DNA of 64,000 bases from an uncultured Acidimicrobiales bacterium (GCA_963698395.1 CAVOQQ010000001.1:68754-132753), one strand, 5' to 3'. Shown: positions 491 to 40,303, counted from the first letter of the stretch. Translations and numbers: made by a program. The notes: generated by a model not told the origin, from the letters alone.

Positions 491-529
491 TCTCCTCGTC
501 GTTGGACATGGGACCCATCCTACTCATCA

Positions 530-1436: not shown

Positions 1437-2219
1437 ATGGACTACACCGACCTCATCGTCGAACACCGCAACCACGTCGCCTACATCACGATCAACCGCC
1501 CCGACAAGATGAATGCGTTTCGCGGTCAGACCTGCGACGAGCTGATCAACGCCTTGCATCGCGCCGGCTACGACCGCGACATCGGCGCCATCGTGCTCGC
1601 CGGTGCCGGTGATCGTGCCTTCTGCACCGGAGGCGACCAATCAGCTCATGAAGGCCAGTACGACGGTCGCGGCACGATCGGCCTGCCGATCGAGGAGTTG
1701 CACACCGCCATCCGGGATGTCCCGGTCCCGGTCATCGCCCGGGTGCAGGGCTTTGCGATCGGTGGCGGCAACGTGCTCGCGACGATTTGTGACCTCACCA
1801 TCTGTTCGGAGTCCGCAACGTTCGGCCAGGTCGGCCCGAAGATGGGGTCGGTCGACCCCGGCTTCGGCACCGCGTTCCTGTCACGAGTCGTCGGCGAGAA
1901 GAAGGCCCGCGAGATCTGGTACCTGTGCCGCCGCTACACCGGCAAGCAGGCAGAAGAGATGGGTCTCGCCAACATCTGTGTGCCCGACGATCAGCTCGAT
2001 GCGACGGTCCAGGAATGGGCAGAAGAGATCTGCGCGAAGAGCCCGACGGCGATTGCCATCGCCAAGCGCTCGTTCAACATGGACACCGCACACCAGGCGG
2101 GCATCGCGGGGATGGGCATGTACGCCCTGCGTCTCTACTACGAGACCGACGAATCCCAGGAAGGCGTCAACGCGCTCAAGGAGAAGCGCCAGCCGAACTT
2201 CCGGGAGTTCGCAACGTGA
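1437..2219 (+). CDS. badI: MenB/BadI-type crotonase, 2-ketocyclohexanecarboxyl-CoA hydrolase-like
   Basis: Intact 260 aa with ITINRPDKMNAF, AFCTGGDQ, GPKMGSVDPGFG, KAREIWYLCR and EKRQPNFREF. Sits directly after the BadH-like SDR. Confidence 0.8.
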   Translation: MDYTDLIVEHRNHVAYITINRPDKMNAFRGQTCDELINALHRAGYDRDIGAIVLAGAGDRAFCTGGDQSAHEGQYDGRGTIGLPIEELHTAIRDVPVPVIARVQGFAIGGGNVLATICDLTICSESATFGQVGPKMGSVDPGFGTAFLSRVVGEKKAREIWYLCRRYTGKQAEEMGLANICVPDDQLDATVQEWAEEICAKSPTAIAIAKRSFNMDTAHQAGIAGMGMYALRLYYETDESQEGVNALKEKRQPNFREFAT

Positions 2220-3373: not shown

Positions 3374-3452
3374 ACCGGCTCGAGTCCGGACCACCGAACT
3401 CGAAGACCACCAAGACGACCAGCCCACGAAACGAACGACGAGGGGAACGCAC

Positions 3453-5083
3453 GTGCATTTCGACGCCGACAACATTCCAGTCCGCCGACCAGCGATGATC
3501 GACGCAGGGTTCTGGCTCGACCAGACCATCAACGAATCCCTCGACGCAGCTGTCGCGGCCCACCCGAGTCGAACGGCGCTCACCGCGGTCCGACTCGATG
3601 GCGACACGCTGTCGATGACGTACGCGAACTCGGTGCCGTCGCTGATCGTGTCGCTCTCGGACTCAACCGCCTCGGCGTACGCGCCAGCGACGTTGTCGCA
3701 GTGCAGCTCCCGAACTGGTGGGAGTTCACCGTCACCTACCTTGCATGTGCCCGCATCGGAGCGGTCATGAACCCGCTCATGCACATCTTCCGAGAGCGCG
3801 AACTCGAATTCATGCTCGGCCACAGCGAGGCATCGGTGGCCATCATCCCATCGACGTTCCGCGACCACGACTACCGGGCCATGTACGACGGCCTCCGCGA
3901 CCGAGCTGCCGCACCTGCAGCACGTCATCGCCGTCGACGACGACGGCCCGAGCGGCTTCAACGCCCGTGCTCGCGGCGACCGACGGTGGAGCCCGATCCC
4001 GACGTCGACGAGATCCTCACCGTGTCGCGACCGGGCCCGGACGACATCACCCAGTTGATCTTCACCTCGGGCACCACCGGCGAACCCAAAGGGGTGATGC
4101 ACAGCTCGAACACGCTCTACTCCAACATCGTGCCGTATGCCGAGCGACTGCACCTCGACAGCGACGACGTCGTGCTCATGGCCTCGCCGATGGCGCATCA
4201 GACCGGGTTCATGTACGGGCTCATGATGCCCGTGATCCTCGGCTGCCCCGCCGTGCTCCTCGACGTCTGGAACCCCGACCGAGCGATCGAGATCATCAAC
4301 GAACACGCGGTCACCTTCACGATGGCATCCACCCCGTTCCTCACCGATCTCGCCGACCGGGCCGAGGCCACTGTTGCCGTGCCGTCACTGCGCACGTTCC
4401 TGTGCGCCGGCGCACCGATCCCCGGCCCACTCGTCGAACGAGCCCAACGTACGCTCGCGAGCGAACATCGTGTCGGCATGGGGTATGAGCGAGAACGGTG
4501 CCGTCACCACAACACTTCTCGATGACGATCCCGAGTCGAGCGATCGACACCGACGGATGCCCTCTCCCGGGGACCGAGGTCAGGGTGGTCGACAGCGACG
4601 GCACCACCCTGCCGACCGGCGAAACTGGTCGCCTCCTCGTCCGGTCGTGCTCGAACTTCGGTGGCTACCTCAAGCGGCCGCATCTCAACGCGACCGACGA
4701 CGACGGATGGTTCGACACTGGCGATCTCGCACGACTCGATGAGCACGGCTACATCCGCATCACCGGACGATCGAAGGACGTCATCATTCGCGGTGGTGAG
4801 AACATCCCCGTTGTCGAGATCGAGAACCTGCTGTACCGGCACCCCGCCATTGCCCAGGTCGCGCTCGTCGCAACGGCTGATGAACGCCTCGGCGAGCGCG
4901 CTTGCGCAGTCGTCGTCATCAATGCCCGGCGAATCGTTCACGTTCGACGAGATGATCGACCACCTCTCCAACGAGCGCGTCGCGAGGAACTACCTCCCTG
5001 AGCAACTCGTCATCGTCGACGCCATGCCAACCACACCGTCAGGCAAGATCCAGAAATTCAAACTGCGCGACGAGATCGCGTGA
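3453..5083 (+). pseudogene. aliA: AMP-dependent acyl-CoA ligase (AliA-like), at least five frame changes
   Basis: Pieces of one ligase lie in successive frames. MHFDADNIP.. (3453 frame). RELGAVADRVALGLNRLGV..LPNWWEFTVTYLACARIGAV..LIFTSGTTGEPKGVMH (3701 frame). ANIVSAWGMSENGAVTTT (4374 frame). DTDGCPLPGTEVRVVD..GWFDTGDLARLDEHGYIRITGRSKDVIIRGGENI (4498 frame). PGESFTFDEMIDHL..PTTPSGKIQKFKLRDEIA (4661 frame). Shifts are near 3622, 3905-3990, 4460, 4536 and 4920. Confidence 0.7.
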
Positions 5084-5621
5084 GACCGTCGAGACGACGA
5101 AACTCCGGAACCCACCCTCAAACAAGTGCGGATACATGATTGTTGAAACACTGCAGCCCGCCAGACGGTCGACGACAACCAACGCGCCAAGTCGCATAGC
5201 AGCTGGATCACCGACCGGGTCCCTACGGTGGCGAACGGCAGATGCGAGGCCGAGGTGGCTCGTATCGTCTGGCCCGACCTACGCGGATCAGTCGACGTTG
5301 CCGGCAGAGCGCTGCGGCACCGACGTCGTCGCGTCACGTTCTCGACGTCGTGGCCAACGACCGTGTCGTGCAAGCGGTGGATTTCGACTCGGAGGCACCT
5401 GAGTTCGCCGGGACCATGACGATGACCTGGTCCGTGCGCCGAGACGGGCGGTGCGAGAACCGAGATCGTTGCCGAAGACGTTCCACTCGAGATCTCCGCC
5501 GAGGACGATGCCGTGGGCCTTGCTTCGAGTCTCGAGAATCTGGCACGCTTCGTCGAGTCGTCAGACCCGTCCGCGCTACGTCGTTGCCGATGAACGTCGA
5601 GTCGCAGCGACCGTCCGGACG

Positions 5622-7813: not shown

Positions 7814-8922
7814 GTGAGGACTGCTTTCTGTGGAGGCATCGGCTTGGTGGAGGGCGAAACGGCCGCCGTTGGGTCGATCAGGTCGATCAACCGTTGCGCA
7901 TCGGAGCCTTCGACGGCGATCACCGTGAGACCGGTCGGTCCGGGCGGGGCGTCCATGATGTCGATCGACTGCGGGGTGAGCTGCACCAGGTACCGCTGTC
8001 CTTCGATGACGAGGCGGCCCTTGGCCCGCACGAGCCCTGGCCTGGATGCTTCGAGTACGGAGCGCAACTCGCTCATCGTCGGTTCGTGTCGTTGCTCCAA
8101 CGTGACGACCGCGAGCTCCCGGTGTATCGCTCCTGCGTTGGCAGGTGCCGGACGGGCTCCTCGCGGAGCGCCGGGCAGGAGCACGTGGGTTGCGGGCGCC
8201 TGACGTGACGAACGAGTCACGGTTCGACCGGGAGCGAGCTGGGCGGCCCGTTCGACGGCGGCTGTCGCGGCGTGGTGATCGACGAGGTCACACGCCGAGA
8301 CGATCACGCAGTGGGCGCTGTCGATCTGACGGTCGGTGATCGACGCCATTGGTTCGAGCAGCGCCGTTTCGGGCAGTTTCGTTTCGGGCAGTTTCGTTTC
8401 GGGCAGTTTCGTTTCGGGCAGTGCGGGTTGGTGAACGGTGGCGGCGGTGAGTTGTGCGGCGCTGACGACGGCGACGATCCGGTCGAGCCGTAATGACGGG
8501 TTGGCGGCGATGACCTGAGCCACCGCGAGCGGGTCGGCCGCTCCGCTGGCCTCGAGCACGATGAGGTCACAGGTGGGATCGTCGGCCAATGCGGCCAGCG
8601 CGTCGGCGAGTTCGGAGGTCCGCTCGCAGCATCCGCAACCGTTCGTGAGCTCGACTCGAACGTCGTTTTCCGACTCGATCAGCGTCGGGTCGAACTCGAG
8701 TGCTCCGACATCGTTCACGATCGCCTTGATCCGGGTGTCGTCGGGTGGGTTCGTCAGCAGATCGGCGAGCAGGAACGATTTCCCGGCGCCGAGGAACCCG
8801 GTGAGAAGACACACCGGCGTCGGGGTTTCGGTGTCCCCCAACGCTTGGGCGCTTGGATCTGGTCGATGCGCGACGAGTTGCGTCCTGAGCGAGAGCCATG
8901 CGGCTTCGATGTCGGCAGGCAT
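7810..8922 (-). CDS. COG0523/CobW-family G3E GTPase (putative metallochaperone)
   Basis: Intact 370 aa with P-loop GFLGAGKS and metal motif NGCGCCE (CxCC). Carries a (PETKL)n insert between the GTPase and C-terminal parts. Confidence 0.8.
   Translation of the reverse strand: MPADIEAAWLSLRTQLVAHRPDPSAQALGDTETPTPVCLLTGFLGAGKSFLLADLLTNPPDDTRIKAIVNDVGALEFDPTLIESENDVRVELTNGCGCCERTSELADALAALADDPTCDLIVLEASGAADPLAVAQVIAANPSLRLDRIVAVVSAAQLTAATVHQPALPETKLPETKLPETKLPETALLEPMASITDRQIDSAHCVIVSACDLVDHHAATAAVERAAQLAPGRTVTRSSRQAPATHVLLPGAPRGARPAPANAGAIHRELAVVTLEQRHEPTMSELRSVLEASRPGLVRAKGRLVIEGQRYLVQLTPQSIDIMDAPPGPTGLTVIAVEGSDAQRLIDLIDPTAAVSPSTKPMPPQKAVLT
8366..8422 (-). repeat. 15-bp in-frame tandem repeat, about 3.8 copies
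   Basis: gtttcgggcagtttc x3 plus a partial fourth unit. On the minus strand it encodes PETKL PETKL PETKL PETAL inside the COG0523 gene. Confidence 0.9.
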
Positions 8923-8927
8923 CTCGC

Positions 8928-10640
8928 TCAGCTGCCCGTAGGGATGCCGCCGAGCACGGTGTCGATCACATCGATCGAGCCGATCTCGGTCGGCGCGACC
9001 TCGAAGGGGTCGTTGGCCAGCACGGTGAAATCGGCCAGCTTGCCGACCTCGATCGAGCCGATCGAGTCGTCCTGCCGCAGCACGTGTGCGGCGTCGACGG
9101 TGATCGCTCGCAACGCTTGTTCGACCGAGATCCTCTCGCCGGGAGCGAGAACGGTCTCGCCGTCGGCTCCGATCCGGGTGGCAGCGATCTCGGCAACGAG
9201 CAGAGGCGACAGCGGGGTGACGACGAGGTTGAAGTCGGAGTGGAGCGCAAACGGGGCTCCGGCCCGCAGGAGTGAACCGAGCCGTGCGGTTGCTTCGGCC
9301 CGGTCGGGACCGAAGCCGGCGTCGGCGTGCATCTGGGCCCGGAACTTCACGAAGTAGGCATTCACGCTGGCCATGCCGCCGAGTGCGGCGAGGCGGCGAG
9401 CTTGCGCCGGTGTGCTGAGGCAGTAGTGCTCGATGACGAACCGGTGATCGAAGCGGGGATGGGCGTGCTGTAAGCGGGCGAGCACATCGAGCGTCATGTC
9501 GACGGTTGCGTCACCGTTTGCGTGCGAGTGGATCTGCACGCCGGCCTTCCAATAGGGCAGCATCCTCTCGTAGACCTCGTCCCACGGGATCTCTCCAGTG
9601 AGGCCGTGCTCGCCGTCGAGGTAGCCGGGCGAGCCGATCTGCAGGGTCATCGACGGGTAGGAGCCATCGTTGATGAACTTCACCCCGTGCGTCGCGAGTC
9701 GGTCGTCGCCTTGTGCGCGTCGGGCGGCGAGGAACTCGAAGGCGTCGTCGCCGAACTTCCGGCGCAGCGATGGCTCGAAGGGAACGAGCAGTACCCGGAG
9801 GGGGAGTTCACCGGCGTCGATGGCATCACGGTGGTCGGCCCACTCGGTGTCGAAGTTCTCGAAGCCCCACCCCATGTCGGCGGTGGTGGTGATGCCCACG
9901 CCTCGGGCAACCCCTCCCATGCGGGCCAGCGCGGCCCGCCCGAACCCCTCGCGGTAGATCATCTGTGCAACCGGACGGACAGCGACCGCGACGGCCGCCG
10001 TCTCGACGAACCAACCGTTGAGACGGCCATCCGCGTAGCGACCCAGTCCGTGGAAGTCCGATGCCTCATCGACGCCGGCCAAGTCGAGCATGGGCGAGTT
10101 CGCGTAGACGATGTGCGGGGCGTAGGCGCACACCCAGATCGGCACGACATCGCTGATCTGGTCCAGCAGATCGCGATCGAGATGTCCGCCGTGCGCTGCC
10201 GGGTCGTACCCCCAACACACCACCGGCTCTGGCCTGCCGTCGGGCCCGGGAACCGAATCGGTGGCGAGTCGTCGAAGGCGCTCGATCACGTCGTCGCGAG
10301 TCGTGACGGGTGGCAGCGCTCTCGGAGAGGCGAGTTCGATGGGGCCGACATAGTGGAGTCCGGCGAACGTGCCCGACAACCGCAAGTGCGTGTGAGGGTC
10401 GATGAATCCCGGGAGCATCACCCGGTCGGCATAGCGATCGTCGATCTCGTGAGGCACACGACGCAGCCATGGCTCCATCGATTCAAGCGTCCCGACCGAC
10501 ACGATCGATCCGTTGGCAACGGCCACGGCGGTCGCATGGGGCCGCCCCTGGTCCATCGTGTGGATCCGTTCGGCGGTGAACACACGAAGCTGCGTCGGTC
10601 GGGCGTTCGACAGCGAAGTACGCAACATCAGGTCATCCAC
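8928..10640 (-). CDS. metal-dependent amidohydrolase (Amidohydro_3 / YtcJ-like)
   Basis: Intact 570 aa with PGFIDPHTHLRLSG, HSHANGD and FALHSDF. Ends 5 nt upstream of the COG0523 gene start. Confidence 0.85.
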   Translation of the reverse strand: MDDLMLRTSLSNARPTQLRVFTAERIHTMDQGRPHATAVAVANGSIVSVGTLESMEPWLRRVPHEIDDRYADRVMLPGFIDPHTHLRLSGTFAGLHYVGPIELASPRALPPVTTRDDVIERLRRLATDSVPGPDGRPEPVVCWGYDPAAHGGHLDRDLLDQISDVVPIWVCAYAPHIVYANSPMLDLAGVDEASDFHGLGRYADGRLNGWFVETAAVAVAVRPVAQMIYREGFGRAALARMGGVARGVGITTTADMGWGFENFDTEWADHRDAIDAGELPLRVLLVPFEPSLRRKFGDDAFEFLAARRAQGDDRLATHGVKFINDGSYPSMTLQIGSPGYLDGEHGLTGEIPWDEVYERMLPYWKAGVQIHSHANGDATVDMTLDVLARLQHAHPRFDHRFVIEHYCLSTPAQARRLAALGGMASVNAYFVKFRAQMHADAGFGPDRAEATARLGSLLRAGAPFALHSDFNLVVTPLSPLLVAEIAATRIGADGETVLAPGERISVEQALRAITVDAAHVLRQDDSIGSIEVGKLADFTVLANDPFEVAPTEIGSIDVIDTVLGGIPTGS

Positions 10641-13475: not shown

Positions 13476-14408
13476 ATGAGGGTTGGCCAGTCGATGACCG
13501 AGGTGGTCGGGCGTACCCCGGTCGTTCAGTTGCGCAAGGTCGTGCCTGACGGCGCCGCCGACGTGTACGTCAAGCTCGAGTGGTTCAATCCGACCGGATC
13601 GTACAAGGACCGGATGGCGCTGGCGATGATCACCGAGGCCGAACGTCGCGGCGACCTTCGTCCCGGGATGACGGTGCTCGAGTACACGGCGGGAAGCACG
13701 GGTTCGTCGCTGGCATATGTGTGCGCTGCGAAGGGCTACCACTTCGAGGTCGCGACATCGGATGCGTTCGCTCCCGAGAAGCTCGCCACGATGGCAGCGC
13801 TTGGCGCTGAGTTGACGATCGTTCCGAGCGTCGGCGGCAAGATCACACCGGACCTGACTCCCCGGATGATCGAGACGGCCCGCCAGCTCGCCGCCGACCC
13901 TGACGTGTTCTGGACGGATCAGCTCGACAACACCGACTCGCTCGTCGGCTACCAGCAGATTGGCGTCGAGTTGCTCGAGCAACTCGAGAAGCCGATCGAC
14001 GTGTTCTGTTGCGCAGTCGGGACGAGTGGCATGGCGACCGGCGTGAAGAACGCACTCGATGACGCCGGCAGCGCGGCACGGGTGGTGATCTTCGAACCCG
14101 ATTCGAGTCCGGTGATCTCAACCGGACTGCCCGGGGTGAACTCGGTCGAGGGCATCGGGATCGGGCTCGTGCCTCCGATGCTCGACCTCGAGCGGTTCGA
14201 CGAGATTCGTGCCATCTCCGAAAGCGAGGCGTTCGCAATGGCTCGACGTCTCGCCGCCGAGGAGGGTCTGCTCGCCGGCGCATCAACCGGACTCGATGTT
14301 GTCGGCACGATCGAACTCGCGAGCGAGATCGGTGAGGGCAAGACCGTCGTCACTCTCGCCTGCGACACCGGTCTCAAGTACCTGTCCGGTGACCTGTACC
14401 GGCGCTGA
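13476..14408 (+). CDS. PLP-dependent cysteine-synthase-family enzyme
   Basis: Intact 310 aa with PLP-lysine motif NPTGSYKDRMALAMI and GSTGSSLA. ATG 13494 is an alternative start. Confidence 0.8.
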   Translation: MRVGQSMTEVVGRTPVVQLRKVVPDGAADVYVKLEWFNPTGSYKDRMALAMITEAERRGDLRPGMTVLEYTAGSTGSSLAYVCAAKGYHFEVATSDAFAPEKLATMAALGAELTIVPSVGGKITPDLTPRMIETARQLAADPDVFWTDQLDNTDSLVGYQQIGVELLEQLEKPIDVFCCAVGTSGMATGVKNALDDAGSAARVVIFEPDSSPVISTGLPGVNSVEGIGIGLVPPMLDLERFDEIRAISESEAFAMARRLAAEEGLLAGASTGLDVVGTIELASEIGEGKTVVTLACDTGLKYLSGDLYRR

Positions 14409-16679: not shown

Positions 16680-18887
16680 TCAGAGCAGACCCAGATCCCG
16701 GGCGGTCTGGACAGCGGCTTTGCGGTTGCCGACGGCGAGCTTGCGGTAGATCGCCGTGCAGTGCGTCTTCACCGTGTTCGGGGAGACGAACAGTTCGCCG
16801 GCGATCTCGCGCTGCGACAGTGCGGTTGGCAGATAGCGGAGCACCGCCGTTTCCCGTTCGGTCAGTTGCTCGATGATCGCTTGCGTCTCCGCCGCGGTTG
16901 CGGCGATGGCGTGTCGAGACTCGATGCGGTCCAGATAGCGAGCAACGATCCCCGGGTCAGGGCAGCGGTCGACCACGATGCGAGCTTCAGCCAGGAGTTC
17001 CAGCCCGACGGGGTCTGCGGCATCCAACAGCACATCGCCGCACATGGTCAGAACGTGTGCCAGCGCCAGGTCGCCGGTGGTTCGCTTTGCCGACTCGACA
17101 GCCCGGCGAGCATCGGCAACGGCTTCGGGACCCTCACCGGTTCGGGCCCGGACGGCGTAGGCCGGACCGAGCCGTTGATAGGAGGCGAGCCCCAACGCTT
17201 CGGCGGTCGCAATGGCATGCATCGCCCGCTCTCTCGCTGCAGCCAGATCCCCCGCATCGAATTCCACAAGCGCCTGATAGATCAGGCTGAGAAGGTGGAC
17301 CGCATTGTTGTCGGTGTTCTCTGTCTTCTCGACGGCGACGTTGAGGACCGCACGTGCATCCTCGGTCTGGCCGGCCCACATGTGGGTTCCCCCGGCGACC
17401 GCGGCGATGTTGGCCAACTCGATCCGAACCGATCGAAGTCGGTCGAGATCTGAGCACTCCCGAGCGATCACCAGCGCCGGCTGGACATCACCGCGGCCGA
17501 GCAGGATGTTCATTCGTAGCGGGGCGGTGGCGATGTGATCGAACCCGTCCGGGGCGATGTCGTGCGTCACCTCCACCCATCGTTCCGCCGAGTCGAACCG
17601 GCCGGCGCTGTATTCACACCAACCCCAGAGCAACGAGCAGATGGTGTCGGTTTCGGCAGCGTCACCGAGCTGAACCAGGATGCCCCGTAGCGTCTCGATC
17701 TGGTTGTCGGCGATGAGTCGAGGACCCAGCACAGTCATGAGGCGAGCGGCTTCCTCACGATCACCGGCGTGCAGGTAGTGGACGACGGCTCGGTCGTGGT
17801 CGCCTTCGGATTCGAACCATGCGGCGGCGCGCCGATGGAGCCCCGGCAGCTGATCGGGGATGCTCGTTTTCGCTTCGAGGCGGAGCAGATCCCGCAGGAG
17901 ATGGTGGTACCGGTACCACTCACCGGTGCGATCCAGTCCGATGACGAGTTGGTTCTCCGAGGCTGTCTCGTTCAGCCACGTCGCGCCGTCGGTGGAATCG
18001 CAGAGGGCATCGACCAATGGTCCGCTCATCTGCTCGAGGATCGAGGTGGTGAGCAATCGATGCAGATGGTCGGGGTTGACCCCGGCAAGGAACTCGTCGC
18101 TCAGATAGTCGACGACGAAATGATCGTCGCCGTGGAACCCCTGAACGAACCTCGACGCGTCCGGCACCTGCGCCATGGAGAGTCGTGCCAGTACCAGACC
18201 GGCCGCCCATCCTTCGGTCCTGTCCGAGAGCAACTCGATCTCTTCGGCATCAAGCGGGCCTCTTCCCGCCCCGAGCAGGTTCGCCGCTTCGGTCGGCTGG
18301 AATCGCAGCCCATCGCTGCGCACCTCGAGCAGATGACCGCGGACCCGTAAACGGCCGAGTCGGAACGGAGGATCGAATCGGGTCGAGATCACAACAGTCA
18401 CCTGCGGCGGACACAACTCGACCAGCCGCTCCATTCCGTGGTGGATGGCATCGTTGGTGATGAGGTGGTAGTCATCGACGACGATCACGAGCGAACGGTC
18501 GTGGCCGGCCAGTGCGGTGATGAGCGTCGAGATGACCATGTCGTCGTCATCATCGGTCGAGGCGAGCACTGCGGGTTTCACTGCGGCTCGCACGCTCGGC
18601 AGGACCTCGCTGATCGCTTCGACGAGGTATGCCCAGAAACGGGCTGGGTCGTCGTCGCCTTCCTCGACCTGCAGCCAAGCCGCTGGCTCCGTGCGACGGG
18701 CCAGCCACGATGCCACGAGCGTCGATTTGCCGGAACCTGCCGGTGCGCTCACCAGCACCAGTCGAGCGTGCGCGTCAACACCGGTATCGAGGATGTCATC
18801 GAGTCGAGCCCGCTGAACGAGCGCATCAGGCAGGGTGGGAGGCCGCAACTTGGTGGCGGCGAGGCTGAGGTTCAACGCTCCGTCCAC
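16680..18887 (-). CDS. LuxR-family regulator of the large ATP-binding (LAL/MalT-like) type
   Basis: Intact 735 aa. Walker A SAPAGSGKST, a central helical-repeat region and a C-terminal HTH REIAGELFVSPNTVKTHCTAIYRKL. Confidence 0.85.
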   Translation of the reverse strand: MDGALNLSLAATKLRPPTLPDALVQRARLDDILDTGVDAHARLVLVSAPAGSGKSTLVASWLARRTEPAAWLQVEEGDDDPARFWAYLVEAISEVLPSVRAAVKPAVLASTDDDDDMVISTLITALAGHDRSLVIVVDDYHLITNDAIHHGMERLVELCPPQVTVVISTRFDPPFRLGRLRVRGHLLEVRSDGLRFQPTEAANLLGAGRGPLDAEEIELLSDRTEGWAAGLVLARLSMAQVPDASRFVQGFHGDDHFVVDYLSDEFLAGVNPDHLHRLLTTSILEQMSGPLVDALCDSTDGATWLNETASENQLVIGLDRTGEWYRYHHLLRDLLRLEAKTSIPDQLPGLHRRAAAWFESEGDHDRAVVHYLHAGDREEAARLMTVLGPRLIADNQIETLRGILVQLGDAAETDTICSLLWGWCEYSAGRFDSAERWVEVTHDIAPDGFDHIATAPLRMNILLGRGDVQPALVIARECSDLDRLRSVRIELANIAAVAGGTHMWAGQTEDARAVLNVAVEKTENTDNNAVHLLSLIYQALVEFDAGDLAAARERAMHAIATAEALGLASYQRLGPAYAVRARTGEGPEAVADARRAVESAKRTTGDLALAHVLTMCGDVLLDAADPVGLELLAEARIVVDRCPDPGIVARYLDRIESRHAIAATAAETQAIIEQLTERETAVLRYLPTALSQREIAGELFVSPNTVKTHCTAIYRKLAVGNRKAAVQTARDLGLL

Positions 18888-22081: not shown

Positions 22082-22810
22082 TCAGAGGAGGTGGAGATCT
22101 CGTGCCGCTTGAACGGCCGCCTTGCGGTCGCCGACGCCGAGCTTGCGGTAGATCGCCTTGCAGTGGGTCTTGACGGTGTTGAGCGACACGTACAGCTCTG
22201 ACGCAATGTCTCGCTGGGAGAGCTGTGATGACAGAGACCGCAGCACAGCGAACTCTCGGTCCGTCAGCTCCTCGATCAGCTGAGGCATCGTCGCTCGAGC
22301 CGGCGTTGCGTCGATCTGATGGCGCGCCTCGACGAGCGCCAGGTACCGGCCGGCGATGCCCGGATCAGGACAGCGATCGATGATCGACCTCGCATCGTGC
22401 AACATGGCTTCTCCGTCGGGGTGGCCGTGGTGGCAGAGCACGTCGCCCCCGCTGGCAAGGGCGTAGGCCAGCATGATCTTCTCCGGAGACCTTCGGGCCA
22501 GTGTGACACCGCGTCGGGCGGTGACGATCGCTTCGTCGGACGCCGTGCCCGTTCTGGCGACCATGCTGTGGGCGAGAGCGGTTTGAGCCAGCTCACTGAA
22601 GCCGTTCGTGTTCGCCGTTTCGATTGCTTGCGATGCGTGTCGGCGAGCAGCGTCGATGGCGCCTGATTCGATCTCGGCGATCGCTCGGAAGATGGGTGCA
22701 ACGGTTTCGACGAAGGCGTTGCCTTCCCGTGCGGCAAAGGTTTGGGCCCGCGCGAGCAGCGTGGTGGCGCGGTCGAAGTCGCCACCCCATCGGAGCGACC
22801 CGTGATCACC
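22082..22810 (-). pseudogene. 5'-truncated paralog of the LAL-type LuxR regulator (helical repeats + HTH only)
   Basis: Collinear with the last ~240 aa of the 735-aa protein (SLRWGGDFDRATTLLARA, IIDRCPDPGIAGRYL, REFAVLRSLSSQLSQRDIASELYVSLNTVKTHCKAIYRKL). No ATPase domain. The frame opens directly after the WYL gene stop (22925). The first ATG is only at 22564. Confidence 0.6.
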
Positions 22811-28401: not shown

Positions 28402-28796
28402 AAGCCTCGTGCGGTCTTTGGGAATGGTCCAAGGCGTCGGATCGAGAACCCGTTCCGGTGACGGCTACGCGGTTGGTGTCGGGGAGCGGATCGATCGGGT
28501 TCGGAACCCAGCGGTGAATCGCTGCCCGCTGGTTGTCGGGTGAGACCGTCGACGCCATCTAGACCTTCGAAGACGAGGTCGTTCTGCTTCTTCGTTGCGA
28601 GATAGGGGTGAGGTCGGGGGGAGGCAGATCCGCAGGAACGAACAGGTGCTGATGTGGTAGGCGTCGGTCATCGCGACGAGGACATTGACGTCGAGCGCGA
28701 CCACGCCGATCGACACGCCCTTTATTCGCCTCGCCCAAAGGAGGAGATTCTCCCCAATGCCGGGTGCACCGAGTCGTTTCCGTTGGCCGATGGATT

Positions 28797-29055
28797 TCAG
28801 CCGAGAGGTAGGAGCGCTCGGACGATTGAACCGTTGCTGCTCGACGTGATGTCGACGGATCCGCCGATCTCGGCGGCTCGCTCGCGCATGGAGGACATGC
28901 CGACGCCGGGCACCCAAGGATTGTCTGAGGAGCCCGTGTCGCGGACGATCACTTCGATGTGCTCATTTTCGTGATTGATCTGTATCCAGACCTGGTCGGT
29001 GCCGCTGTGTCGCGCCGAGTTCGTCACGGCCTCGGTGGCGATCCTTCGGGCGGGG
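28797..29055 (-). pseudogene. sensor histidine kinase C-terminal fragment
   Basis: PARRIATEAVTNSARHSGTDQVWIQINHENEHIEVIVRDTGSS..GVGMSSMRERAAEIGGSVDI is the last ~85 aa of a NarL-type kinase. Nothing kinase-like lies upstream. Confidence 0.6.
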
Positions 29056-29083
29056 TCCTTTTGCGGTGAGGTAGGGTCGCCGC

Positions 29084-30008
29084 GTGCAGAACCGGCCAGG
29101 AGCGCTCGCAGCGATCGGGAAGACTCCGGTCGCGAGGCTGTCGTCGTTCGGCGGGCCGGACGCCGCCGAGATCTGGGTCAAACTCGAGGCGGCGAATCCC
29201 ACGGGCTCCTACAAGGACCGCATGGCCCTCGCCATGATCGAGGGAGCAGAGGCACGGGGTGAGCTTCGGCCCGGTCAGACCGTCGTCGAGTACACGGGCG
29301 GGTCGACTGGGAGTTCCCTTGCGTTCGTCTGCAGCATCAAGGGCTATCCGCTCCGGATCGTGTCCTCGAACGTGTTCGCCGATGAGAAGCTTCTGACCAT
29401 GCGCGCCTTTGGTGCCGATCTCGAGCTGGTCCACAGCGACGAGGGGATTCATCCCGATCTGATTCCACAGATGCAGGCTCGTGTCGCAGAGATCGTCGAG
29501 GAGGAAGGCGCCTTTCCCACTGACCAGTTCAACAACCTCGACACACTTGATGGCTACCTGGAGATCGGTCGTGAGCTCGTCGAACAGATAGACGGCGAGA
29601 TCCACGGCATCGCGGTCTATGTCGGTGTCGGCGGCGCCTACATGGGAACGAGTCGGCCGATCCGCGAGCGTTGGCCCGATGTCGTTCGCACCGTCGTCGA
29701 ACCTGCCGAGTCTGCGGTCATCGCTGGTCGTACCGCCGGAAGTCACATGATCGAAGGCGGAGGCGTCGGCTTCGTCCCGCCGCTCATCACCCCTGACAGC
29801 TATGACCGTCTTGACGCGGTGAGCACAGAGGAAGCGTTCGACGCTGCTCGCACGCTTGCGCGAGTCGAGGGTGTCTGGACCGGGCCGAGCGGCGGAGCCA
29901 GCATCCTTGCGGCTGCCCGCCTTGCCAGGGAGCCGGTCCGGACACCGCGTCGTCACGCTTCAGCCTGACTCAGGGCTCAAGTACTTGAGCGGCGATCTGT
30001 ACAGGTGA
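29084..30008 (+). pseudogene. PLP-dependent cysteine-synthase-family enzyme (paralog of 13476..14408), 3' frameshift
   Basis: KLEAANPTGSYKDRMALAMIEGAE and GGSTGSSLAF. The listed ORF ends at 29968, but the family tail HRVVTLQPDSGLKYLSGDLYR* is in the +1 frame, to 30008 (compare VTLACDTGLKYLSGDLYRR* at 14408). Shift near 29935. Confidence 0.7.
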
Positions 30009-30299
30009 CGCCAGGATCGTCTCGGGCAAACCCACCTCGTTGAGCTTCGCATTCGTCGTGTCCACATCAACCAAAGGATCAGGCAGGTCGGTCGGCCAGT
30101 CAGATCGATTCCATGCCCGCTGCGGGCATGCAGGGTGGGTTGCGTCTTCCGGGTGTTGCCTCGGGGCTGGGGACACAGAGTTCGGCTTCGAGGCCGCCGA
30201 GGTCGGTGAAGAACCGGCGGAGCACGGGTTCCGAAGTCGGTGACGAACCCGTCGGTCGCATCACGCTGCATGAGGCCGGGCGATCGAATGGGGGGACAG

Positions 30300-30836
30300 A
30301 TGGCTATTGGTCGCAGAGAAATTCTCAAAGGCCTCTTCGCGATACGTGAGCGGTGGGATTCACCACCACGGCAGCCGGCGCGCTCCCGAACAACGCCGGC
30401 GACGGAGTTTCTCCTCAGAGGTCGGCCTGACTGCTTTGCATGTCAGCGCATCCAACCTCCGTCTTTCGACAGCCGGTCGATCTGCTCCCACCACCGGTGA
30501 AAGCGTGCTGCTGAGCGCGGGGAGCTCGAGATCGACGCCATGGGGATCAGTGGCACCATGCACGGTGTGTACCTGGTGATCGATTCGCCAGGAGCGGTCG
30601 GCGCATCCGCCCCGACCAGTATCGAGACGCACTACTTCGCCTTCCCTGGCGGCACCCTCGTTGGATCGGGAACGGCGTCGCTCGATGACGCCGAAGACGA
30701 GTTCGTGGTGCTCGGCGGCACCGGCGCATTCGCCGGTATCCGGGGATCGTATGGCGCCATTCAGCGCCCGCTCGGGCTCGGCGGCGACGGCACCGCCAGC
30801 TATCAGTTCACATTCCTCACCCAGCAAGGATCCTGA
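30300..30836 (+). pseudogene. twin-arginine-signal protein with dirigent / allene-oxide-cyclase-barrel-like domain, about three frameshifts
   Basis: ATG 30300 MAIGRREILKGLFAI (RRxxLK motif). AVGFTTTAAGALPNNAGDG (second frame). VGLTALHVSASNLRLSTAGRSAPTTGESVLLSA (third frame). ELEIDAMGISGTMHGVYLVIDS..FVVLGGTGAFAGIRGSYG..YQFTFL (30540 frame). Confidence 0.55.
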
Positions 30837-30837
30837 A

Positions 30838-31329
30838 ATGGCAGTCGACATGCTCCTCAAGCTCGGAAGCGTTGTCGGTGAGAGCATCATCGCAGGTCAC
30901 GAAGGCGAGATCGACGTTCTTGCGTGGTCATGGGGCGCGAGCAACTCGGTAGCTCGACTCCAGGTCAGGTCCAACAAGGTGACGTCGAGCTTCCAAGACC
31001 TCTCTTTGACGAAGTGCATCGATCGTTCGAGCGAAGACCTGCTCGAGCTGGTCGCGACCGGAGCACAGGTACCAGACGCTCAATTGACGGTGCGCAAGGC
31101 GGGTGACACCTCAGTCGATTACGTGGTCATCCGCTTCAAGCCCGTGATCGTCAGACGTCTGTCTCGACCGGCGGGAGTGGCGGTGACGATCGATTGACCG
31201 AGAATGTCTCGCTCAACTTCGGGGCCTTCGAATACGTCTATACCCCTCCGGGTGAGAGAGGGCGTGGGTTCGACGGAGGAGTTCGCTTGGGACATCCAGG
31301 CTGCGAAGGCCATCACGGGCAACGTCTGA
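30838..31329 (+). pseudogene. hcp: Hcp (type VI secretion tube protein) homologue, two compensating frameshifts
   Basis: ATG 30838, 1 nt after the upstream stop. Three blocks: MAVDMLLKLGSVVGESIIAGHEGEIDVLAWSWGAS..FQDLSLTKCIDRSSEDLLELVATGAQVPDAQLTVRKAG..VDYVVIRFKPVIV | TSVSTGGSGGDDRLTENVSLNFGAFEYVYTPP | EGVGSTEEFAWDIQAAKAITGNV*. The middle block is in another frame (shifts near 31155 and 31250). The motifs match Hcp1 of P. aeruginosa as I recall it. Confidence 0.7.
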
Positions 31330-31380
31330 CGCCCACCGAACGGTTGGGTGTCGCCGGTGTTCAGGTGATCGGTGGTGGTG

Positions 31381-32290
31381 TCAGGCTGATCGCTGCCGCA
31401 ATGGTCTCGCCACCGCGGTCGATATCGGCGGAGCGGCCGAGCGTGGCGGGGGTGTCGCGTCCGGTGCTGCCATCATCGGGAAGCGGCGCCAGCCGTGACC
31501 GGACTCGTGGAAGCCGATTGCTGGTGTGGTCGCTCCGTCACACGACACGATCAGGGCCTTGGTGGCTCCCATCTCGCTGAAGTGTTGACCGAGCTGGATC
31601 TGAGGGCCACAGTGATAGTCGTTGCAGACGTCGGAACGTTCCGTTCGAGGTAGCGCACAGCCCTGGTCACCGTGATAGACGCAGCTGCCCTCGACCGAAT
31701 GCTCGGGCAGGCGGTCCAGATAGTGAGCGGTTACGTCGGCCTCCGTCATTCCGGGATGCTCGTGACAGAACCGTTGGATCGTGTCGACCGTCAGGAAGGC
31801 ATGGCTGGCCGCCCCAAGGGTGCAGCATCGGCCCGCGGAAGTGGCGCAGGCAGCGGACATCAGGGGGTGCTCGGGGCTCCTCTCCGCCACGGTCCGTCGG
31901 CGACTTCGGGGCCTCCTCGGCAAAGGCGGCCGTAACCACCTGATTCACACGCGTGCCGAAGTCGACTCGTCGTTCATCCGGAAGCGATGAAAGTGGCCGA
32001 TCTTGGCGTGGCACGAGTCCGTAGGCGATCTCGGCCGGGTCGCCGCCCAGCTCGGCAGCGGCAGCGTCGATCTCGGACCCGTGAGTTTCGATGATCTGGC
32101 ACAGACTGGTGATGTGGGTCTGCCATCGAGCGACGTGAGCCTGCCATCGCCGTTCGCGGACCAGAGCGGCAGCCTCTTGGATCCGTCGGGTCTGGCGACT
32201 CCGCGCCGAGCAGACACCGCTCCTGACCGCCTCGTGACGATCGATCAGTGCGTTGCAGAATCGGCAGGTCGGTTGCCACGGCAGCGCGGT
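31381..32290 (-). pseudogene. zinc-ribbon-like + YkgJ/CxxCxxCC-type cysteine-cluster protein, at least one frameshift; 5' end uncertain
   Basis: CRFCNALIDRHEAVRSGVCS..DERRVDFGTRVNQVVTAAFAEEAP (31667..32458 frame). Then CATSAGRCCTLG..SCVYHGDQGCALPRTERSDVCNDYHCGP (31381..31923 frame). Shift near 31870. Confidence 0.45.
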
Positions 32291-32714
32291 CGCCTGCAGC
32301 GATGTAGGTCGCCCGGTCAACCCGGGTCTTCCTGCCGTTGGAACACTCGCTTCACTTCGACGTTCGGAGCCGCGAAATTGGCCAGCCCATCCGGCGAGAC
32401 CGGACGTCCGCTGGTTCCTGCACATGTCACCGACAGTAGTGCAAGCGCCAGGATCCATCCGAAGGGACGCCGCCGCCGATGCCGTGCTCGATCAGGCATC
32501 GGTCATCCAGGGCGACCGAAACCCTCAAGTAGGGCGAGTGCGAGGAGCGGGCCACACGATTGGCGCAGTCGTTTCTCGTCCCCGGGTGGAAGGTGGTCGT
32601 GTCCCAGAACCTCACACGACGCTCACGCAACGAGAGCAGATTGGGGCTGGTCAGCGTGGTGTCGGAGCAAGGTGACTTTCGGCTTGGTCACCCGTCGAAC
32701 CTCGTTCTACTGCG

Positions 32715-34393
32715 TCAGCACACGGTGACGGTTCCGGTGGTCGGGTCGATCTCGACCTCGTCGTCGGTTCGGACGGAGCGCAGGAGCCCTGAGACGCCGA
32801 CGATGGCGGGGACGCCGAACTCGCGGGCTGACGATCGCGGTGTGGCTCATCGGACCGCCCTCTTCCACGGCAACGGCACCAAGCAGCGGGAAGATGCTGT
32901 TGAACGACGGGCTGGTGAACGGCGCGATCAGCACGTCGCCTTCCTCGATCGCATCGAAGTCGCTCATCGGGACGAGCGATCACGACGGGCGCGCCCGCGG
33001 TACACGCCGCCCCCGATCCCCTGACCGACCAAGGCTTCCCCGGCGGCTGCTGCCGACTCGCCCTGCATCGCGTCGATGAGCGCCATCACGGCGCGAGTTG
33101 CCCGCGCCATCGGCTTCGGGAATGCGTCGAGTGGCGGGGGCGGTTCCTCCTCGCCGAGCAACGTCGGCGCATCGAGCGAGAGCTGGAACGTGCGCTCGGC
33201 ATCGCGTTCGCGGATCTGGTCGACCGAGGGAGTACGCGCGCCGCGGAGCAGTCCGGCGAGCTCGGCGCCGTCGCAGTGGATGACGTGCGCCGCGTCGGCG
33301 AGAGCCGCGCCACGTTGCTCCAAGCGTCGCCCGATCTCGATCAGGGCTCGCCTGGCGATTCCGGCCGGCCAGTTCAGGCGCAGTCCGACGTTGTCGTCGC
33401 GAAGGCGAAGCCCGTATCGGGCCTCGGCGAGCAGTTCGTCGAACAGCGCTCGCTGATCGGCCGGAACCCGCTCACGCAGCGCCGTCGGATCGGGCGTCGG
33501 GGTGTGGGCGTCGGGGTCGAGGGCAGCGACGATCCGCCACTGGAGGTGGGGCTGTTCGTGGAGTGTGGGACAGTCGACGTCGTCGCTGTTGAGGAGCCGC
33601 CAGCCGTGAAGTTCGAGCCAGCGGTCGATCGCCGTTGCTGCCTGTGGCGAGCGGGAGCGGAGCTCGGCGATGGAAGACGGTGCAGCGCCGCGTCGCGGGC
33701 AGCGGCAAGGGCGCGCGCCGCCGGGGCGAGCAGATCGCGGGTCTCGACGGTGAGCGGCGACGAACCCGAGAGCAGCGGCGTCGCCTCCGCGGCGGTGATG
33801 CCCCAGCCGGCGCAGTGGGCGAGGTAGTCGCCGCACGGCACGATGTCGCCGCCGTGGGTCGCGAAGCCCAGCACGAACTGCTCGGCCAAATGATCGGCGA
33901 GTTCCTCGACGTGCGCCGCGAGTGCGTCGTCGCTCGCACCCGCCGGATCGAACGCCTGGAAGCGCAGGTTCTCGGACAACACGCCGCTGCGACCGCCACG
34001 ATCGAACCAGTCGTCGACGTCCTCGCGCCAGCGGCGCTCGACCCAGGCCTGCCGGGCGGTTCGGTTGCGACGGCGCAGCTCGGGGTGGAGACGTGCGACG
34101 AGCCACATGATCGGCCTCGGCGGCGGTGCACCACCCTTGCCGTTGTCGCCGATCGCCTTCGGACGGGCGTACACGTACCCGTGCACGTTGGCGAACTCCA
34201 TCGTCTCCAGCGGCAGGCCGAACCGCGCGGTGAGCGTCTCGAAGCCATCGGACGCTCCGTCGGCGATCGTGCGCATGAAGCGCGTGCCGGGTCTGCGTCC
34301 GTGGTGCGTGGTGTCGAGCATCCACTGGCCGGGGCCCGGCGGAACGAATTCGGCGGTGGGGGAGCTCGATGTCGTATCGCTGGTCATCGTCAT
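32715..34393 (-). pseudogene. PEP-utilising-enzyme mobile-domain protein, three frameshifts
   Basis: Four successive frames. MTMTSDTTSS..QWMLDTTHHGRRPGTRF. DRWLELHGWRLLNSDDVDCPTLHEQP..RYGLRLRDDNVG. MSDFDAIEEGDVLIAPFTSPSFNSIFPLLGAVAVEEGGPMSHTAIV. REFGVPAIVGVSGLLRSVRTDDEVEIDPTTGTVTVC*. GGxxSH is the swivel-domain phospho-His context. Confidence 0.6.
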
Positions 34394-34490
34394 GTGCCTG
34401 GTACTTCTCGCTCGGTCCGCACACTTGGATGCAGATACGCTGTCGTCAATGACATTGAGTCTGCACTAAAGGCAGTGGTACTGTCAAGAG

Positions 34491-37496: not shown

Positions 37497-39110
37497 TCAC
37501 GTGCTGGTGGTCACTCGCAAGGTGTTGTCTTCGATCACGACGAGACGGCCTTCGGCCACCGCGAGGTAGAGGTACGACTGGTCCCGCTCGCCCAGCCCTT
37601 CGACCTGACCACTCCATGCGACATCACCGTCGGCGAGCGCATGCGCCGAGACCATCCCGTTGCGCCCGACGACGTACACCGTGTCGCCGGCGATCGCGAG
37701 CTGCCCCCAGTCGATTGCGGTCGATGTCGCAACGCTCCACCGCAGTTCCCCGGTTGCGATGTCACGGGCTTGCAGCGCACCGCTCGAACTGCTCAGCTGC
37801 ACGAACTGCTCACCATCGCTTGCGATGTCGGAGACCCACCGTTCCTGAACCTGCCAGACCTCTGCGCCGGTCGTGGCATCGATGCCCGTGACCGTTTCGA
37901 AGTCCTCATCGACCGTCATCAAGATCCCGCCGTCGAGGTGTTCGACCCGATCCCGGTTGATGTCGTCGGCAGTCCACACGACCTCACCGGTCTGGAGGTC
38001 GATCGAGGTGACGGAATCCGTGTCAGCCAGTATCGCGACCGTCTCGTCGAGATACAGCCACGGAACGACGGTGGTCGTCGGGTCGAAGTGCGACCAACGA
38101 GTCTCACCGGTGTCGAGGTCCACCGCAGCGAGGAACGAGCTGCTGTCACGACTGGATCCCACCAGCAAGGCCAGGCCGCGCTCGATCGAGAGAGCGTGCG
38201 GGACGAGGTTTTGGGCGAGCTCGAACTCGGTGTAGGGCGAATCGTCGGGGATATCGGTGAAGAGGTCACCGATCGCGACCGACTGGATGAGCGCCCCACT
38301 CGAACGCTCGAGTACTCGGAGTTCCGGCCCGCGATCGTTGACCACGGTGGCGACGGTCTTCCCGGTCAGCACGATGTTCGTGCAGCACGTCCCTGCCGCT
38401 TCATCGCTCCACACGAGCTCGCCCGATTCGGCGTCGTAGGCCACGAGCTGGAAGAGGCGGTCGCCCGAGGGCACCACCGAGTAGACCAGACCCCCGCCCG
38501 CAGCGGTTCCGGCTCGATCAACCACCTCGGTCTCCCATGCCACTGTTGGCGTCGCGCTCGGCCCAGGGCTGGTGAACAGACCATCGAAGGGACTGATCGG
38601 CGAACCGATCTGGCCGATCTCATCGTCGCCGATCCAGTTCCGCAGATCGGTGTCGGTCCTCGGCACCACGGGCGACAGCGACGTGTCGGTGGCTTCGGCA
38701 TCGATCGTCGTTGCGGCAGACTCCGCGGTCTCATCGGCTGCGGCGGTCGTCGAAGACGTTTCGGCGTCGCGGGTCGTCTCTTCGACGTCGGGCGACGCGG
38801 GGCCGGCCACATCTTGGCCGGGTGATTCGTCGCCGCCTCGTGTGAGCACGATCGCCGTCGCCCCGATCACCACCGCAAGGAGAACCGCAGCGAAGACCAG
38901 GCGGCCCTTCGGGCGGACCACGGCACTGGTCGTCGCTGTCGCTTCCTGTGCCGCCACCGGTTTCGCCGGCTTCGGGGCGTTTGCGGCGATCGTCGGTGTC
39001 GACAGGGGGGCGACGGGGTCGGTCAACGGTGGCGAAGGAGGCGTGGCGACGGCACGCTCGGGCACCACCTCACGCTTCACCGGCTCGACGAGTCCGGCAT
39101 CGTCGACCAC
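37497..39110 (-). CDS. single-pass membrane protein with PQQ-like/BamB-like beta-propeller ectodomain (possibly the C-terminal part of a fusion with the upstream Hsp70-like gene)
   Basis: 537 aa: Pro-rich linker, TM LVFAAVLLAVVIGATAIVL and an acidic/Thr-rich spacer. Repeated blades follow (GELVWSD, GETRWSH, GEVVWTA, GAEVWQV, GELRWSV, GDVAWSG). The listed start is a GTG inside the 30-bp repeat. Confidence 0.75.
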   Translation of the reverse strand: MVDDAGLVEPVKREVVPERAVATPPSPPLTDPVAPLSTPTIAANAPKPAKPVAAQEATATTSAVVRPKGRLVFAAVLLAVVIGATAIVLTRGGDESPGQDVAGPASPDVEETTRDAETSSTTAAADETAESAATTIDAEATDTSLSPVVPRTDTDLRNWIGDDEIGQIGSPISPFDGLFTSPGPSATPTVAWETEVVDRAGTAAGGGLVYSVVPSGDRLFQLVAYDAESGELVWSDEAAGTCCTNIVLTGKTVATVVNDRGPELRVLERSSGALIQSVAIGDLFTDIPDDSPYTEFELAQNLVPHALSIERGLALLVGSSRDSSSFLAAVDLDTGETRWSHFDPTTTVVPWLYLDETVAILADTDSVTSIDLQTGEVVWTADDINRDRVEHLDGGILMTVDEDFETVTGIDATTGAEVWQVQERWVSDIASDGEQFVQLSSSSGALQARDIATGELRWSVATSTAIDWGQLAIAGDTVYVVGRNGMVSAHALADGDVAWSGQVEGLGERDQSYLYLAVAEGRLVVIEDNTLRVTTST

Positions 39111-40303
39111 GGTTCGTCGACTCTGGCATCGTCGACCACCGGTTCGTCGACTCTGGCATCGTCGACCACCGGTTCGTCGACCTCGGTCTCATGGGCCATC
39201 GCCTGGCCTTCGAGTATGTCGGACACCGATGGAGCGACGGCTGCGGCACCCATGGCGACCGCGTGTTTGGGGTGGATGTCCGACAGCACGGGCCGGTTCA
39301 TTCTGCTGGTGAGGATCTGGTTCACGAGCGGGATGCGACTTGTGCCGCCGACCAACAACACGGCATCGATGTCGGACGAGTGCAGCCCTGCCTCGGCAAT
39401 CGTGGTCTCGAGCAAGGTCACGGCATCGGTGACGGCCGGTCGGATCATCGCCTCGAACTCGGCTCGGTTGAGCCGAATCTCGGTGTGGTGGTCGGGCAGC
39501 ATCACCGGGATCACGGCAACGGTGTCGTCGGACAGCGCCTCCTTGGCCGCAACACAATCGTGGCGAAGCCGGTCGATCGCCGATCGATTGCTCGGGTTGT
39601 CCTCGATGAGGTCGAAGTCGATGCCGACCGTGGTCATGACGTGCCGCAAGATGCCCTCGTCGAAATCGATACCGCCGAGTTGTTCGAGTCCTCTCGCCTG
39701 ACCGACGAGCTCGAACTCTGCGTCCGTTCGCTTCAGGACGGCGGCATCGAAGGTTCCGCCGCCGAAGTCGAAGACGACGATCGTGTCGCCGGCCTCGATG
39801 CTGTGCTCGCCGAGGTAGTGCCGGGCTGCGGCCACCGGCTCGGCGAGGATCTGTCCCGTTGGCAGCCCCGCCAGCTGGAAGACCTGGCCGAATCGCTCGA
39901 GTTTGTAGGGTCCCCAGTTGGCTGGATGGGTGAGAATGACCTCGTCGGGCGGCTCGCCCTCCGATGCCGTGACGACGGCGACGATCTGTTGCAGCATCGC
40001 ACCCATCAGCGCCTCCGCCGATCGTGGCTTGCCGCCAACGATCAGCGGTACGGGATCGCCGAGACGACGCTTGAATTCGCGTGCGACGTTGGCCGGGTCG
40101 GTGGCGCCACGTCGCTCCGCCGCTGCCCCGATCAGGATCGTGTCGTCATCGAGCAGAGCGACGACGGACGGAATCTCGGCGGTCCGCACACCGAGCCGCG
40201 CCATCTCGACGGAACGCTCAGTGGTGGTCCCGTCAGCATCAGTCCGAGCAATTGCGGCTGCCGACCACGTGGTTCCGAGGTCGACCCCAAGCCGGTACGT
40301 CAT
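39077..40303 (-). CDS. Hsp70/actin-fold ATPase-domain protein without substrate-binding domain
   Basis: ATG 40303 behind GGAGGGGAG. MTYRLGVDLGTTWSAAAI, VVFDFGGGTFD and LLVGGTSRIPLV. The protein ends in VDEPVVDDAR repeats. The stop at 39077 is reached only after the 1-nt-short repeat. Confidence 0.75.
   Translation of the reverse strand: MTYRLGVDLGTTWSAAAIARTDADGTTTERSVEMARLGVRTAEIPSVVALLDDDTILIGAAAERRGATDPANVAREFKRRLGDPVPLIVGGKPRSAEALMGAMLQQIVAVVTASEGEPPDEVILTHPANWGPYKLERFGQVFQLAGLPTGQILAEPVAAARHYLGEHSIEAGDTIVVFDFGGGTFDAAVLKRTDAEFELVGQARGLEQLGGIDFDEGILRHVMTTVGIDFDLIEDNPSNRSAIDRLRHDCVAAKEALSDDTVAVIPVMLPDHHTEIRLNRAEFEAMIRPAVTDAVTLLETTIAEAGLHSSDIDAVLLVGGTSRIPLVNQILTSRMNRPVLSDIHPKHAVAMGAAAVAPSVSDILEGQAMAHETEVDEPVVDDARVDEPVVDDARVDEPWSTMPDSSSR
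39092..39180 (-). repeat. 30-bp in-frame tandem repeat x3, one copy 1 nt short
   Basis: Units encode VDEPVVDDA(R/G). 39121-39150 and 39151-39180 are identical 30-mers. The 39092-39120 copy lacks one C (gaccacggtt versus gaccaccggtt). Confidence 0.9.

Follow-up and report, generated by a model that had tools for sequence, protein, structure and literature searches.

[quoted passage not shown] The stretch of DNA analysed here (the window, 64 kb from an uncultured Acidimicrobiales bacterium) carries an Hcp-like gene directly behind a gene for a protein with a twin-arginine (Tat) signal. It raises the question of what such a pair does in this host: whether it works apart from a T6SS, serves a machine encoded elsewhere, or is a leftover in decay. 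A preliminary description, made from the DNA alone, had read positions 30838–31329 as an Hcp after two frame corrections. The frame-repaired product (163 aa) matched the Pfam profile T6SS_HCP (PF05638) from end to end (E 6e-27, 94.9 bits against a cut-off of 23.5; residues 7–134 on profile positions 2–129 of 129), and the identification was upheld by this profile comparison, which had been proposed for it. The NCBIfam subfamily model TIGR03344 scored the same protein at 31 bits, under its cut-off of 58.9. The closest solved relative was Hcp1 of P. aeruginosa (PA0085, 1Y12; E 3e-37), a similarity which suggests that the window Hcp would form a hexameric ring or tube. An intact Hcp from an Acidimicrobiales metagenome-assembled genome (MAG) (P0001, locus L011) was 70–71% identical to it, and the Hcp of a complete T6SS cluster used as a control (L025) shared 60–65% identity with these Hcp proteins. 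The Hcp of the pair lacked a signal peptide. Apart from the two frame switches listed in Table 1, the gene showed a further +2/+1 difference at 30950–30957, which was frame-neutral. The uncorrected 119-aa Hcp ORF (P0002) and two other ORFs of the window were all located on one contig of 1,117,877 bp (NCBI/ENA), and binning contamination is therefore no issue. Another Hcp relative, P0005 (57% identical to the window Hcp), was found in tandem with a second Hcp in L026 (88–1124), a 1.3-kb contig on which the upstream region is cut off.

Table 1. Coordinates of the Hcp and barrel genes in the window and of the features within them
Feature	Position	Strand	Details
Barrel gene, Tat-signal AOC/dirigent/PodA fold (predicted), ~175 aa	30300..30836	+	ATG 30300, TGA 30834-30836; three frame-shifting indels in the assembly
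Putative twin-arginine signal peptide region (MAIGRREILKGLFA..AVGFTTTAAGAL)	30300..30385	+	RR motif; unstructured in the model, pLDDT below 50
+2 nt insertion (AT, 30342-30343) and possible in-frame TGA (30347-30349) within the signal peptide	30342..30349	+	DNA alignment to four intact relatives; codon walk, most parsimonious alignment
+5 nt relative to L002, L003 and L004	30410..30414	+	L001 has +6 there; effectively -1 within a variable linker
+2 nt insertion (GG), restoring the original barrel-gene frame	30519..30520	+	DNA alignment to intact relatives
AAGGA Shine-Dalgarno-like site for Hcp	30826..30830	+	Within the last codons of the barrel gene (QQGS); conserved in L002, L003 and L011
Hcp (T6SS tube protein family) gene	30838..31329	+	ATG 30838, stop 31327-31329; two compensating indels in the assembly
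First Hcp frame switch, +2 nt insertion (AG)	31153..31154	+	DNA alignment to intact relatives; just 5' of the TSVSTGGSGG motif
Second Hcp frame switch, near 31263	31255..31270	+	-2 nt relative to L002/L003, or +1 relative to L004

The upstream gene ends in a TGA one base before the Hcp ATG, exactly the spacing first reported. Its repaired product opens MAIGRREILKGL and was 79–87% identical to the intact 175-aa proteins of L002, L003 and L004. It carries the motif RREILKGL ahead of a segment of moderate hydrophobicity with an A-x-A-type end, as in Tat substrates. A twin-arginine motif of the form RRx-hydrophobic-hydrophobic was present in 124 of 146 full-length representatives of the family. 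The short Pfam model TAT_signal matched one of 18 members (E 0.1). From the RR signal, Tat-dependent export of the protein is predicted.

The mature protein (approximately 14 kDa) had been likened to dirigent proteins and allene oxide cyclase (AOC). The repaired window protein alone matched the Pfam Dirigent profile (PF03018) with an E-value of 0.0024, under the cut-off. Among 18 aligned members, Dirigent matched all 18 (best E 6.6e-7) and AOC_like (PF18678) matched 12 (best E 1.1e-7); the bit scores, available for six members, fell short of the cut-offs (29.1 for Dirigent, 25.9 for AOC_like), and the remaining members are represented by E-values only. Precomputed Pfam tags occurred on a few members of the family, and NCBIfam contained no model for it. 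An AlphaFold2 model built from the 18-sequence alignment had residues 1–36 unstructured, followed by an eight-stranded antiparallel barrel (pLDDT 77 overall, approximately 90 in the barrel). Every one of the top 50 Foldseek matches of this model was a barrel of the AOC, PodA, dirigent or Diels-Alderase kind, with a probability of 1.0. For the best matches in the PDB, E was 2e-6 and the TM-scores were 0.53–0.59 on the query and 0.73–0.74 on PodA. The AOC/dirigent likeness is thus weak by sequence and, as judged from the predicted model, firm by fold. We refer to the protein as the barrel protein. Its named structural relatives (plant allene oxide cyclase, dirigent proteins, the mycobacterial pyocyanin demethylase PodA and the Diels-Alderases AbyU, AbmU and Cyc15) have the eight-stranded barrel in common with it, but only 12–22% sequence identity, and none of them is linked to Hcp or VgrG. 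An exhaustive profile search placed the size of the family at 897 clusters at 50% identity (E <= 1e-3). A tblastn search with two members against 72,556 plasmids gave zero matches. Distant paralogues in L021 (7684–10384, a Capillimicrobium MAG) and L018 (7595–10168) took the form of stop-to-stop ORFs of 453–479 aa with two or more barrel repeats, or of two neighbouring genes; neither Hcp nor VgrG was found near them.

A pairing of this kind may be an accident of one genome or the property of a family. The four closest intact relatives of the window Hcp (57–71% identity) all had a homologue of the barrel gene, 175–177 aa long, directly upstream. A profile search with the barrel protein in a small word-indexed set returned 19 proteins, two of which were on long contigs; an Hcp followed each of the two, in differing neighbourhoods (CO-dehydrogenase-type genes in one, P450, TetR and AMP-binding genes in the other). 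A scan of GTDB with one genome per species yielded 14 loci, all in MAGs of Actinomycetota (Acidimicrobiales, Actinomycetes, Gaiellaceae, Solirubrobacteraceae and Capillimicrobium). With local HMMs, an Hcp was detected immediately downstream of every strong barrel match in these loci, and only weak, distant paralogues were without one. A metagenome scan added 65 further loci, mostly with a GC content of 0.6–0.74. These scans used the narrower alignments A4 and A6 (A3 and A5 were too divergent), and the surveys are limited by those search patterns. Among 36 non-redundant strong loci, the order was barrel then Hcp in 26 and VgrG then barrel in five; the remaining five were unclassified because a contig end hides the flank. 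A stand-alone barrel gene was not encountered among those of the 36 loci in which both flanks were visible. The survey of other Actinobacteria for the Tat-protein/Hcp pair, suggested in the preliminary description, therefore recovered it in 26 of 36 loci, with all named carriers in the Actinomycetota.

The two genes were also tightly coupled. Of 24 Hcp-linked loci measured, 23 had a stop-to-start distance between -11 and +14 nt, and at the junction of the 24 loci a Shine-Dalgarno-like GGAGG or AAGGA lay over the stop codon. In unsaturated comparisons, dN/dS was 0.22–0.27 for the barrel gene and 0.38–0.66 for Hcp. The distance matrices of the two proteins were correlated (r = 0.68; Mantel 0/2000), a mirror-tree signal that a shared species phylogeny alone could produce. 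Purifying selection acts on each gene, the two diverge in step, and many uncultured Actinomycetota from soil and water have kept them as a module whose translation is coupled. We found no description in the literature of a Tat-signal barrel that partners Hcp or VgrG, or of a function of these two in Actinomycetota. A three-gene form was observed in the syntenic loci L045 (3137–5282) and L048 (1593–3435), both with a DUF7059 methyltransferase upstream: the barrel gene, a 160-aa Hcp and a second Hcp with a C-terminal extension of 100–210 aa. The extension had no Pfam match and contained a shared segment, LIGLLTAPF.T.RLGL.

VgrG was the only T6SS protein besides Hcp in 636 kb of flanking sequence, and it was found exactly where Hcp was missing. 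It was encoded directly upstream of the barrel gene in L027 (1817–3758), L028, L031, L033 and L037. The barrel-linked VgrGs (473–492 aa) comprised Phage_GPD (the gp27-like hub) and Phage_base_V (the OB domain) and passed the NCBI T6SS VgrG model TIGR03361 (444 bits against a cut-off of 186). Their sequence ends at the point at which a beta-helix needle begins in the VgrG of the control cluster L025, and they are thus needle-less. The barrels linked to VgrG formed one clade nested among the Hcp-linked barrels, which therefore indicates a single partner swap. In L027, the VgrG was split over three frames and read into a complete barrel gene. The corresponding ORF (P0170) was considered as a VgrG–barrel fusion and rejected; its middle was frame-shift junk, and the barrel unit kept its own signal peptide. 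The VgrG–barrel loci adjoined housekeeping genes (UvrA/UvrB in L037).

A whole T6SS near the pair was sought with the proteins of the complete control cluster L025. In the 636 kb of flanks (92 loci), phmmer detected none of TssA, B, C, E, F, G, J, K, L, M, ClpV, FHA or ImpE, and the same queries found none among all ORFs of the 64-kb window. Pfam searches on selected window ORFs, with the translations of the other segments read by eye, likewise returned no T6SS core gene in the window. The original statement that the 64 kb holds no other T6SS gene has thus been sustained by these means. The selected ORFs matched PALP, HATPase, PEP-utilizers, CobW, PQQ propeller, Hsp70-like, GH65 and AMP-binding families, and for L001, L005 and L008 the neighbours with precomputed Pfam annotation were metabolic genes only. 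The scope of this absence is the 64-kb window and the 636 kb of flanks.

The hypothesis that the pair is an orphan hcp/vgrG cargo island, with the barrel as cargo effector or as exported accessory or immunity-like protein, and that it serves a full T6SS, or a contractile injection apparatus of another kind, elsewhere in the genome, has to be weighed within this scope. Its layout resembles the orphan hcp and vgrG islands known from T6SS-positive bacteria (PMC13098142), its VgrG passes the T6SS model, its Hcp is close to that of a complete cluster, and where VgrG is the partner the barrel lies downstream of it, the usual place of cargo genes. Against this stand the lack of any sheath, baseplate, membrane-complex or ClpV gene in the sequence covered, the missing needle of the VgrG, and a Tat signal, which is contradictory on a T6SS cargo. 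Moreover, the T6SS is presented in a review as a machine of Gram-negative bacteria (PMC8632748), whereas every carrier with a name belongs to the Actinomycetota. Nor was there an immunity gene conserved next to the cargo; only the barrel gene and its partner were conserved, and the flanks differed in every locus. We consider this explanation unlikely, although it is the main rival to our best picture.

The actinobacterial character of the surroundings, already noted before, was confirmed by the acyl-CoA dehydrogenase at 2213–3370, whose identity was 90–91% with proteins from Ilumatobacter sp. MAGs and 86% with proteins of Acidimicrobiales. Judged by these identities, the host is an Ilumatobacter-like Acidimicrobiales bacterium. 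The GC content of the window was even (approximately 0.65), without a dip at the pair. Genes were called from a codon-model map, which replaced GC3-based calling (ambiguous at 65% GC), and no tRNA was found in the window. A CobW/G3E-GTPase-like gene (7873–8943, minus strand) contained a perfect tandem peptide repeat, (TKLPE)x4, encoded by a 15-nt repeat in a linker. A full-length large regulator of the MalT/LuxR type (16683–18887, minus strand) was accompanied, about 3 kb away, by a paralogous fragment (22085–22783, minus strand), reduced to the LuxR HTH and the TPR-like C-terminal region, which may be a truncated gene. At 37506–40303 (minus strand), an Hsp70-like ATPase without substrate-binding domain (397 aa) is followed by a beta-propeller protein of the PQQ/BamB type with a long low-complexity N-terminus, and the two genes overlap at stop and start. 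Synteny with close relatives stopped at window position 5084. In L093/L094 (13184–19698), an integrative element that is missing from the window (TrwC-type relaxase, HTH_17, PIN toxin and phage-type integrase) comes after the AMP-binding gene.

The state of the window copy bears on a further explanation. Its two genes contain five frame-breaking indels and one possible in-frame TGA (Table 1), and the shifts within each gene add up to a multiple of three. The preliminary description had proposed a decaying horizontal acquisition, and in its general form this would make the pair, here and elsewhere, a functionless remnant of an acquired T6SS fragment. The broken window copy agrees with such a remnant, as do the frameshifted VgrG of L027 that runs into the barrel gene and the codon model of the window, which scored the Hcp segment below the barrel segment. 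The family speaks against it: intact copies were present in more than 30 loci from several orders, dN/dS was below 1 for both genes, the junction and its Shine-Dalgarno site were conserved, and barrel and Hcp co-diverged. Even the window copy had a dN/dS of 0.24–0.5 in comparison with intact relatives, like the comparisons among intact copies. As a general account, decay is therefore very improbable; the claim does not hold for the family and could at most apply to this one copy.

Whether the organism itself has a broken pair is a separate question. Four independent short-read assemblies (L093–L096), 93% identical to window positions 2–5084, served as an indel test. The AMP-binding (acyl-CoA synthetase) gene (3390–5084, plus strand) differed from them by nine indels, eight of which were single-base insertions, whereas the MarR, SDR, ECH and ACAD genes just upstream had zero in 2.7 kb. 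The dS was 0.19 across the AMP-binding gene and the four upstream genes alike, and the AMP-binding gene had a dN/dS of 0.16 and no in-frame stop. A uniform sequencing-error model was rejected on the ratio of nine indels to none in adjacent genes, and an old-pseudogene model for the AMP-binding gene was rejected on its dN/dS and the lack of stops. The pattern favours patchy consensus error, with assembly mistakes concentrated in single genes; the alternative would be a highly unusual burst of indels. Applied to the pair, this would mean that assembly or consensus errors caused the frame shifts, and that the pair of the organism is intact and working. The AMP-binding gene, the compensation of the shifts inside each gene of the pair and the dN/dS of the window copy argue for it. 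However, it would need strong patchiness, most indels lie outside homopolymers and those in the pair are mostly of +2 nt, the codon at 30347 is a likely nonsense codon, and several neighbouring genes (28.6–34.4 kb) are broken too, as in a decaying accessory region. We give this explanation an even chance, and the balance between recent inactivation and mis-assembly of the window copy is about even, with mis-assembly at least as likely. The earlier observation that both genes are frameshifted is accordingly true of the assembly, and may be an artefact in view of the nine indels in one nearby gene, the none in four adjacent genes and the low dN/dS. The broken genes around the pair (28612–34424) comprised a histidine-kinase fragment (28612–29102, minus strand), a cysK-like PALP gene (29084–30008, plus strand) with its C-terminus in another frame, and a PEP-utilizers mobile-domain gene (32707–34424, minus strand) split over at least four frames; an intact cysK-like paralogue was located at 13485–14399.

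Overall, our best picture is that an Hcp or VgrG ring bound to a Tat-exported barrel cargo works without a T6SS, a picture we hold tentatively, with a little less than even confidence. The Hcp hexamer and the base of VgrG have the same tube-fold ring, and small T6SS cargo proteins bind Hcp. Since the barrel protein pairs with either Hcp or VgrG, ring binding would be the simplest reading: the folded barrel would bind the tube-fold ring that is common to both, like a small T6SS cargo on Hcp, and would sit in the ring cavity or on the stacking face of the ring. The Tat pathway transports folded proteins and complexes. With a Tat signal on one partner, the complex would then assemble in the cytoplasm, and the barrel would be exported afterwards by Tat. 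Hcp or VgrG may act as a cytoplasmic holder or chaperone, or may be carried out as a signal-less hitchhiker; we prefer neither. Outside the cell, the barrel would most likely bind or transform a hydrophobic small molecule by analogy with its structural relatives; AOC, PodA, dirigent and polyketide Diels-Alderase barrels hold such molecules. The earlier suggestion of an Hcp that works apart from a T6SS, along with the exported protein next to it, agrees with the conserved module. The VgrG partner argues for a general binding of tube-fold rings and against an Hcp-only chaperone.

Some points weigh against this picture. An Hcp hexamer measures approximately 105 kDa and 85–90 Å in width, and the hexamer or a VgrG trimer would be large for Tat. 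The 60–65% identity to Hcp from a true T6SS fits a tube still under its original constraints.

The pair has likenesses to several known systems. Like Hcp–cargo pairs and orphan hcp/vgrG islands, of which Hcp1 of P. aeruginosa and the small Tse effectors are examples, it consists of a canonical Hcp or VgrG beside a small protein that could fit in or on the ring, in a two-gene unit away from a main cluster. It differs from them in its Actinomycetota hosts, the lack of a T6SS gene nearby, the Tat signal on the partner, the position of the partner upstream of hcp, the lack of an immunity gene and the needle-less VgrG. The orphan island is the nearest known kind, of which the pair would be a variant in a phylum without the machine, and it may have a new way of working. 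Tat proofreading chaperones (REMPs of the TorD/DmsD type) are, like the Hcp proposed here, cytoplasmic partners encoded beside a Tat substrate that would hold it before export; their fold is unrelated to Hcp, and they bind the signal peptides of cofactor enzymes. As a passenger of Tat, Hcp or VgrG has to our knowledge never been described. The gene arrangement nevertheless resembles that of Tat hitchhikers, in which one partner carries the RR signal, its operon partner is signal-less and the genes are tightly coupled, and Tat exports the folded oligomer. Hydrogenase small and large subunits belong here, as does PaoABC, a documented case of hitchhiking (PMC4273604). The known cases are cofactor-containing redox enzymes, however, and the ring or VgrG trimer would be at or beyond their known size range. 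That monoderm Actinomycetota took Hcp and a needle-less VgrG hub from a contractile machine for a Tat-barrel partner, with the ring as a Tat hitchhiker acting outside or as part of an undescribed tube/spike-based apparatus, appears possible but rather unlikely to us.

The locus also carries a warning, in that the apparent pseudogenes of the window may be assembly artefacts. The barrel proteins are an unnamed family of approximately 900 clusters at 50% identity, for which the genomic partner offers a direct handle for experiments. With no machine in sight, such a selected and coupled module across several actinobacterial orders would imply one of two things: that the tube-fold ring has a second, T6SS-independent job, either holding the barrel or travelling with it through Tat, or that an injection-type apparatus has gone unrecognised in a phylum supposed to have none.
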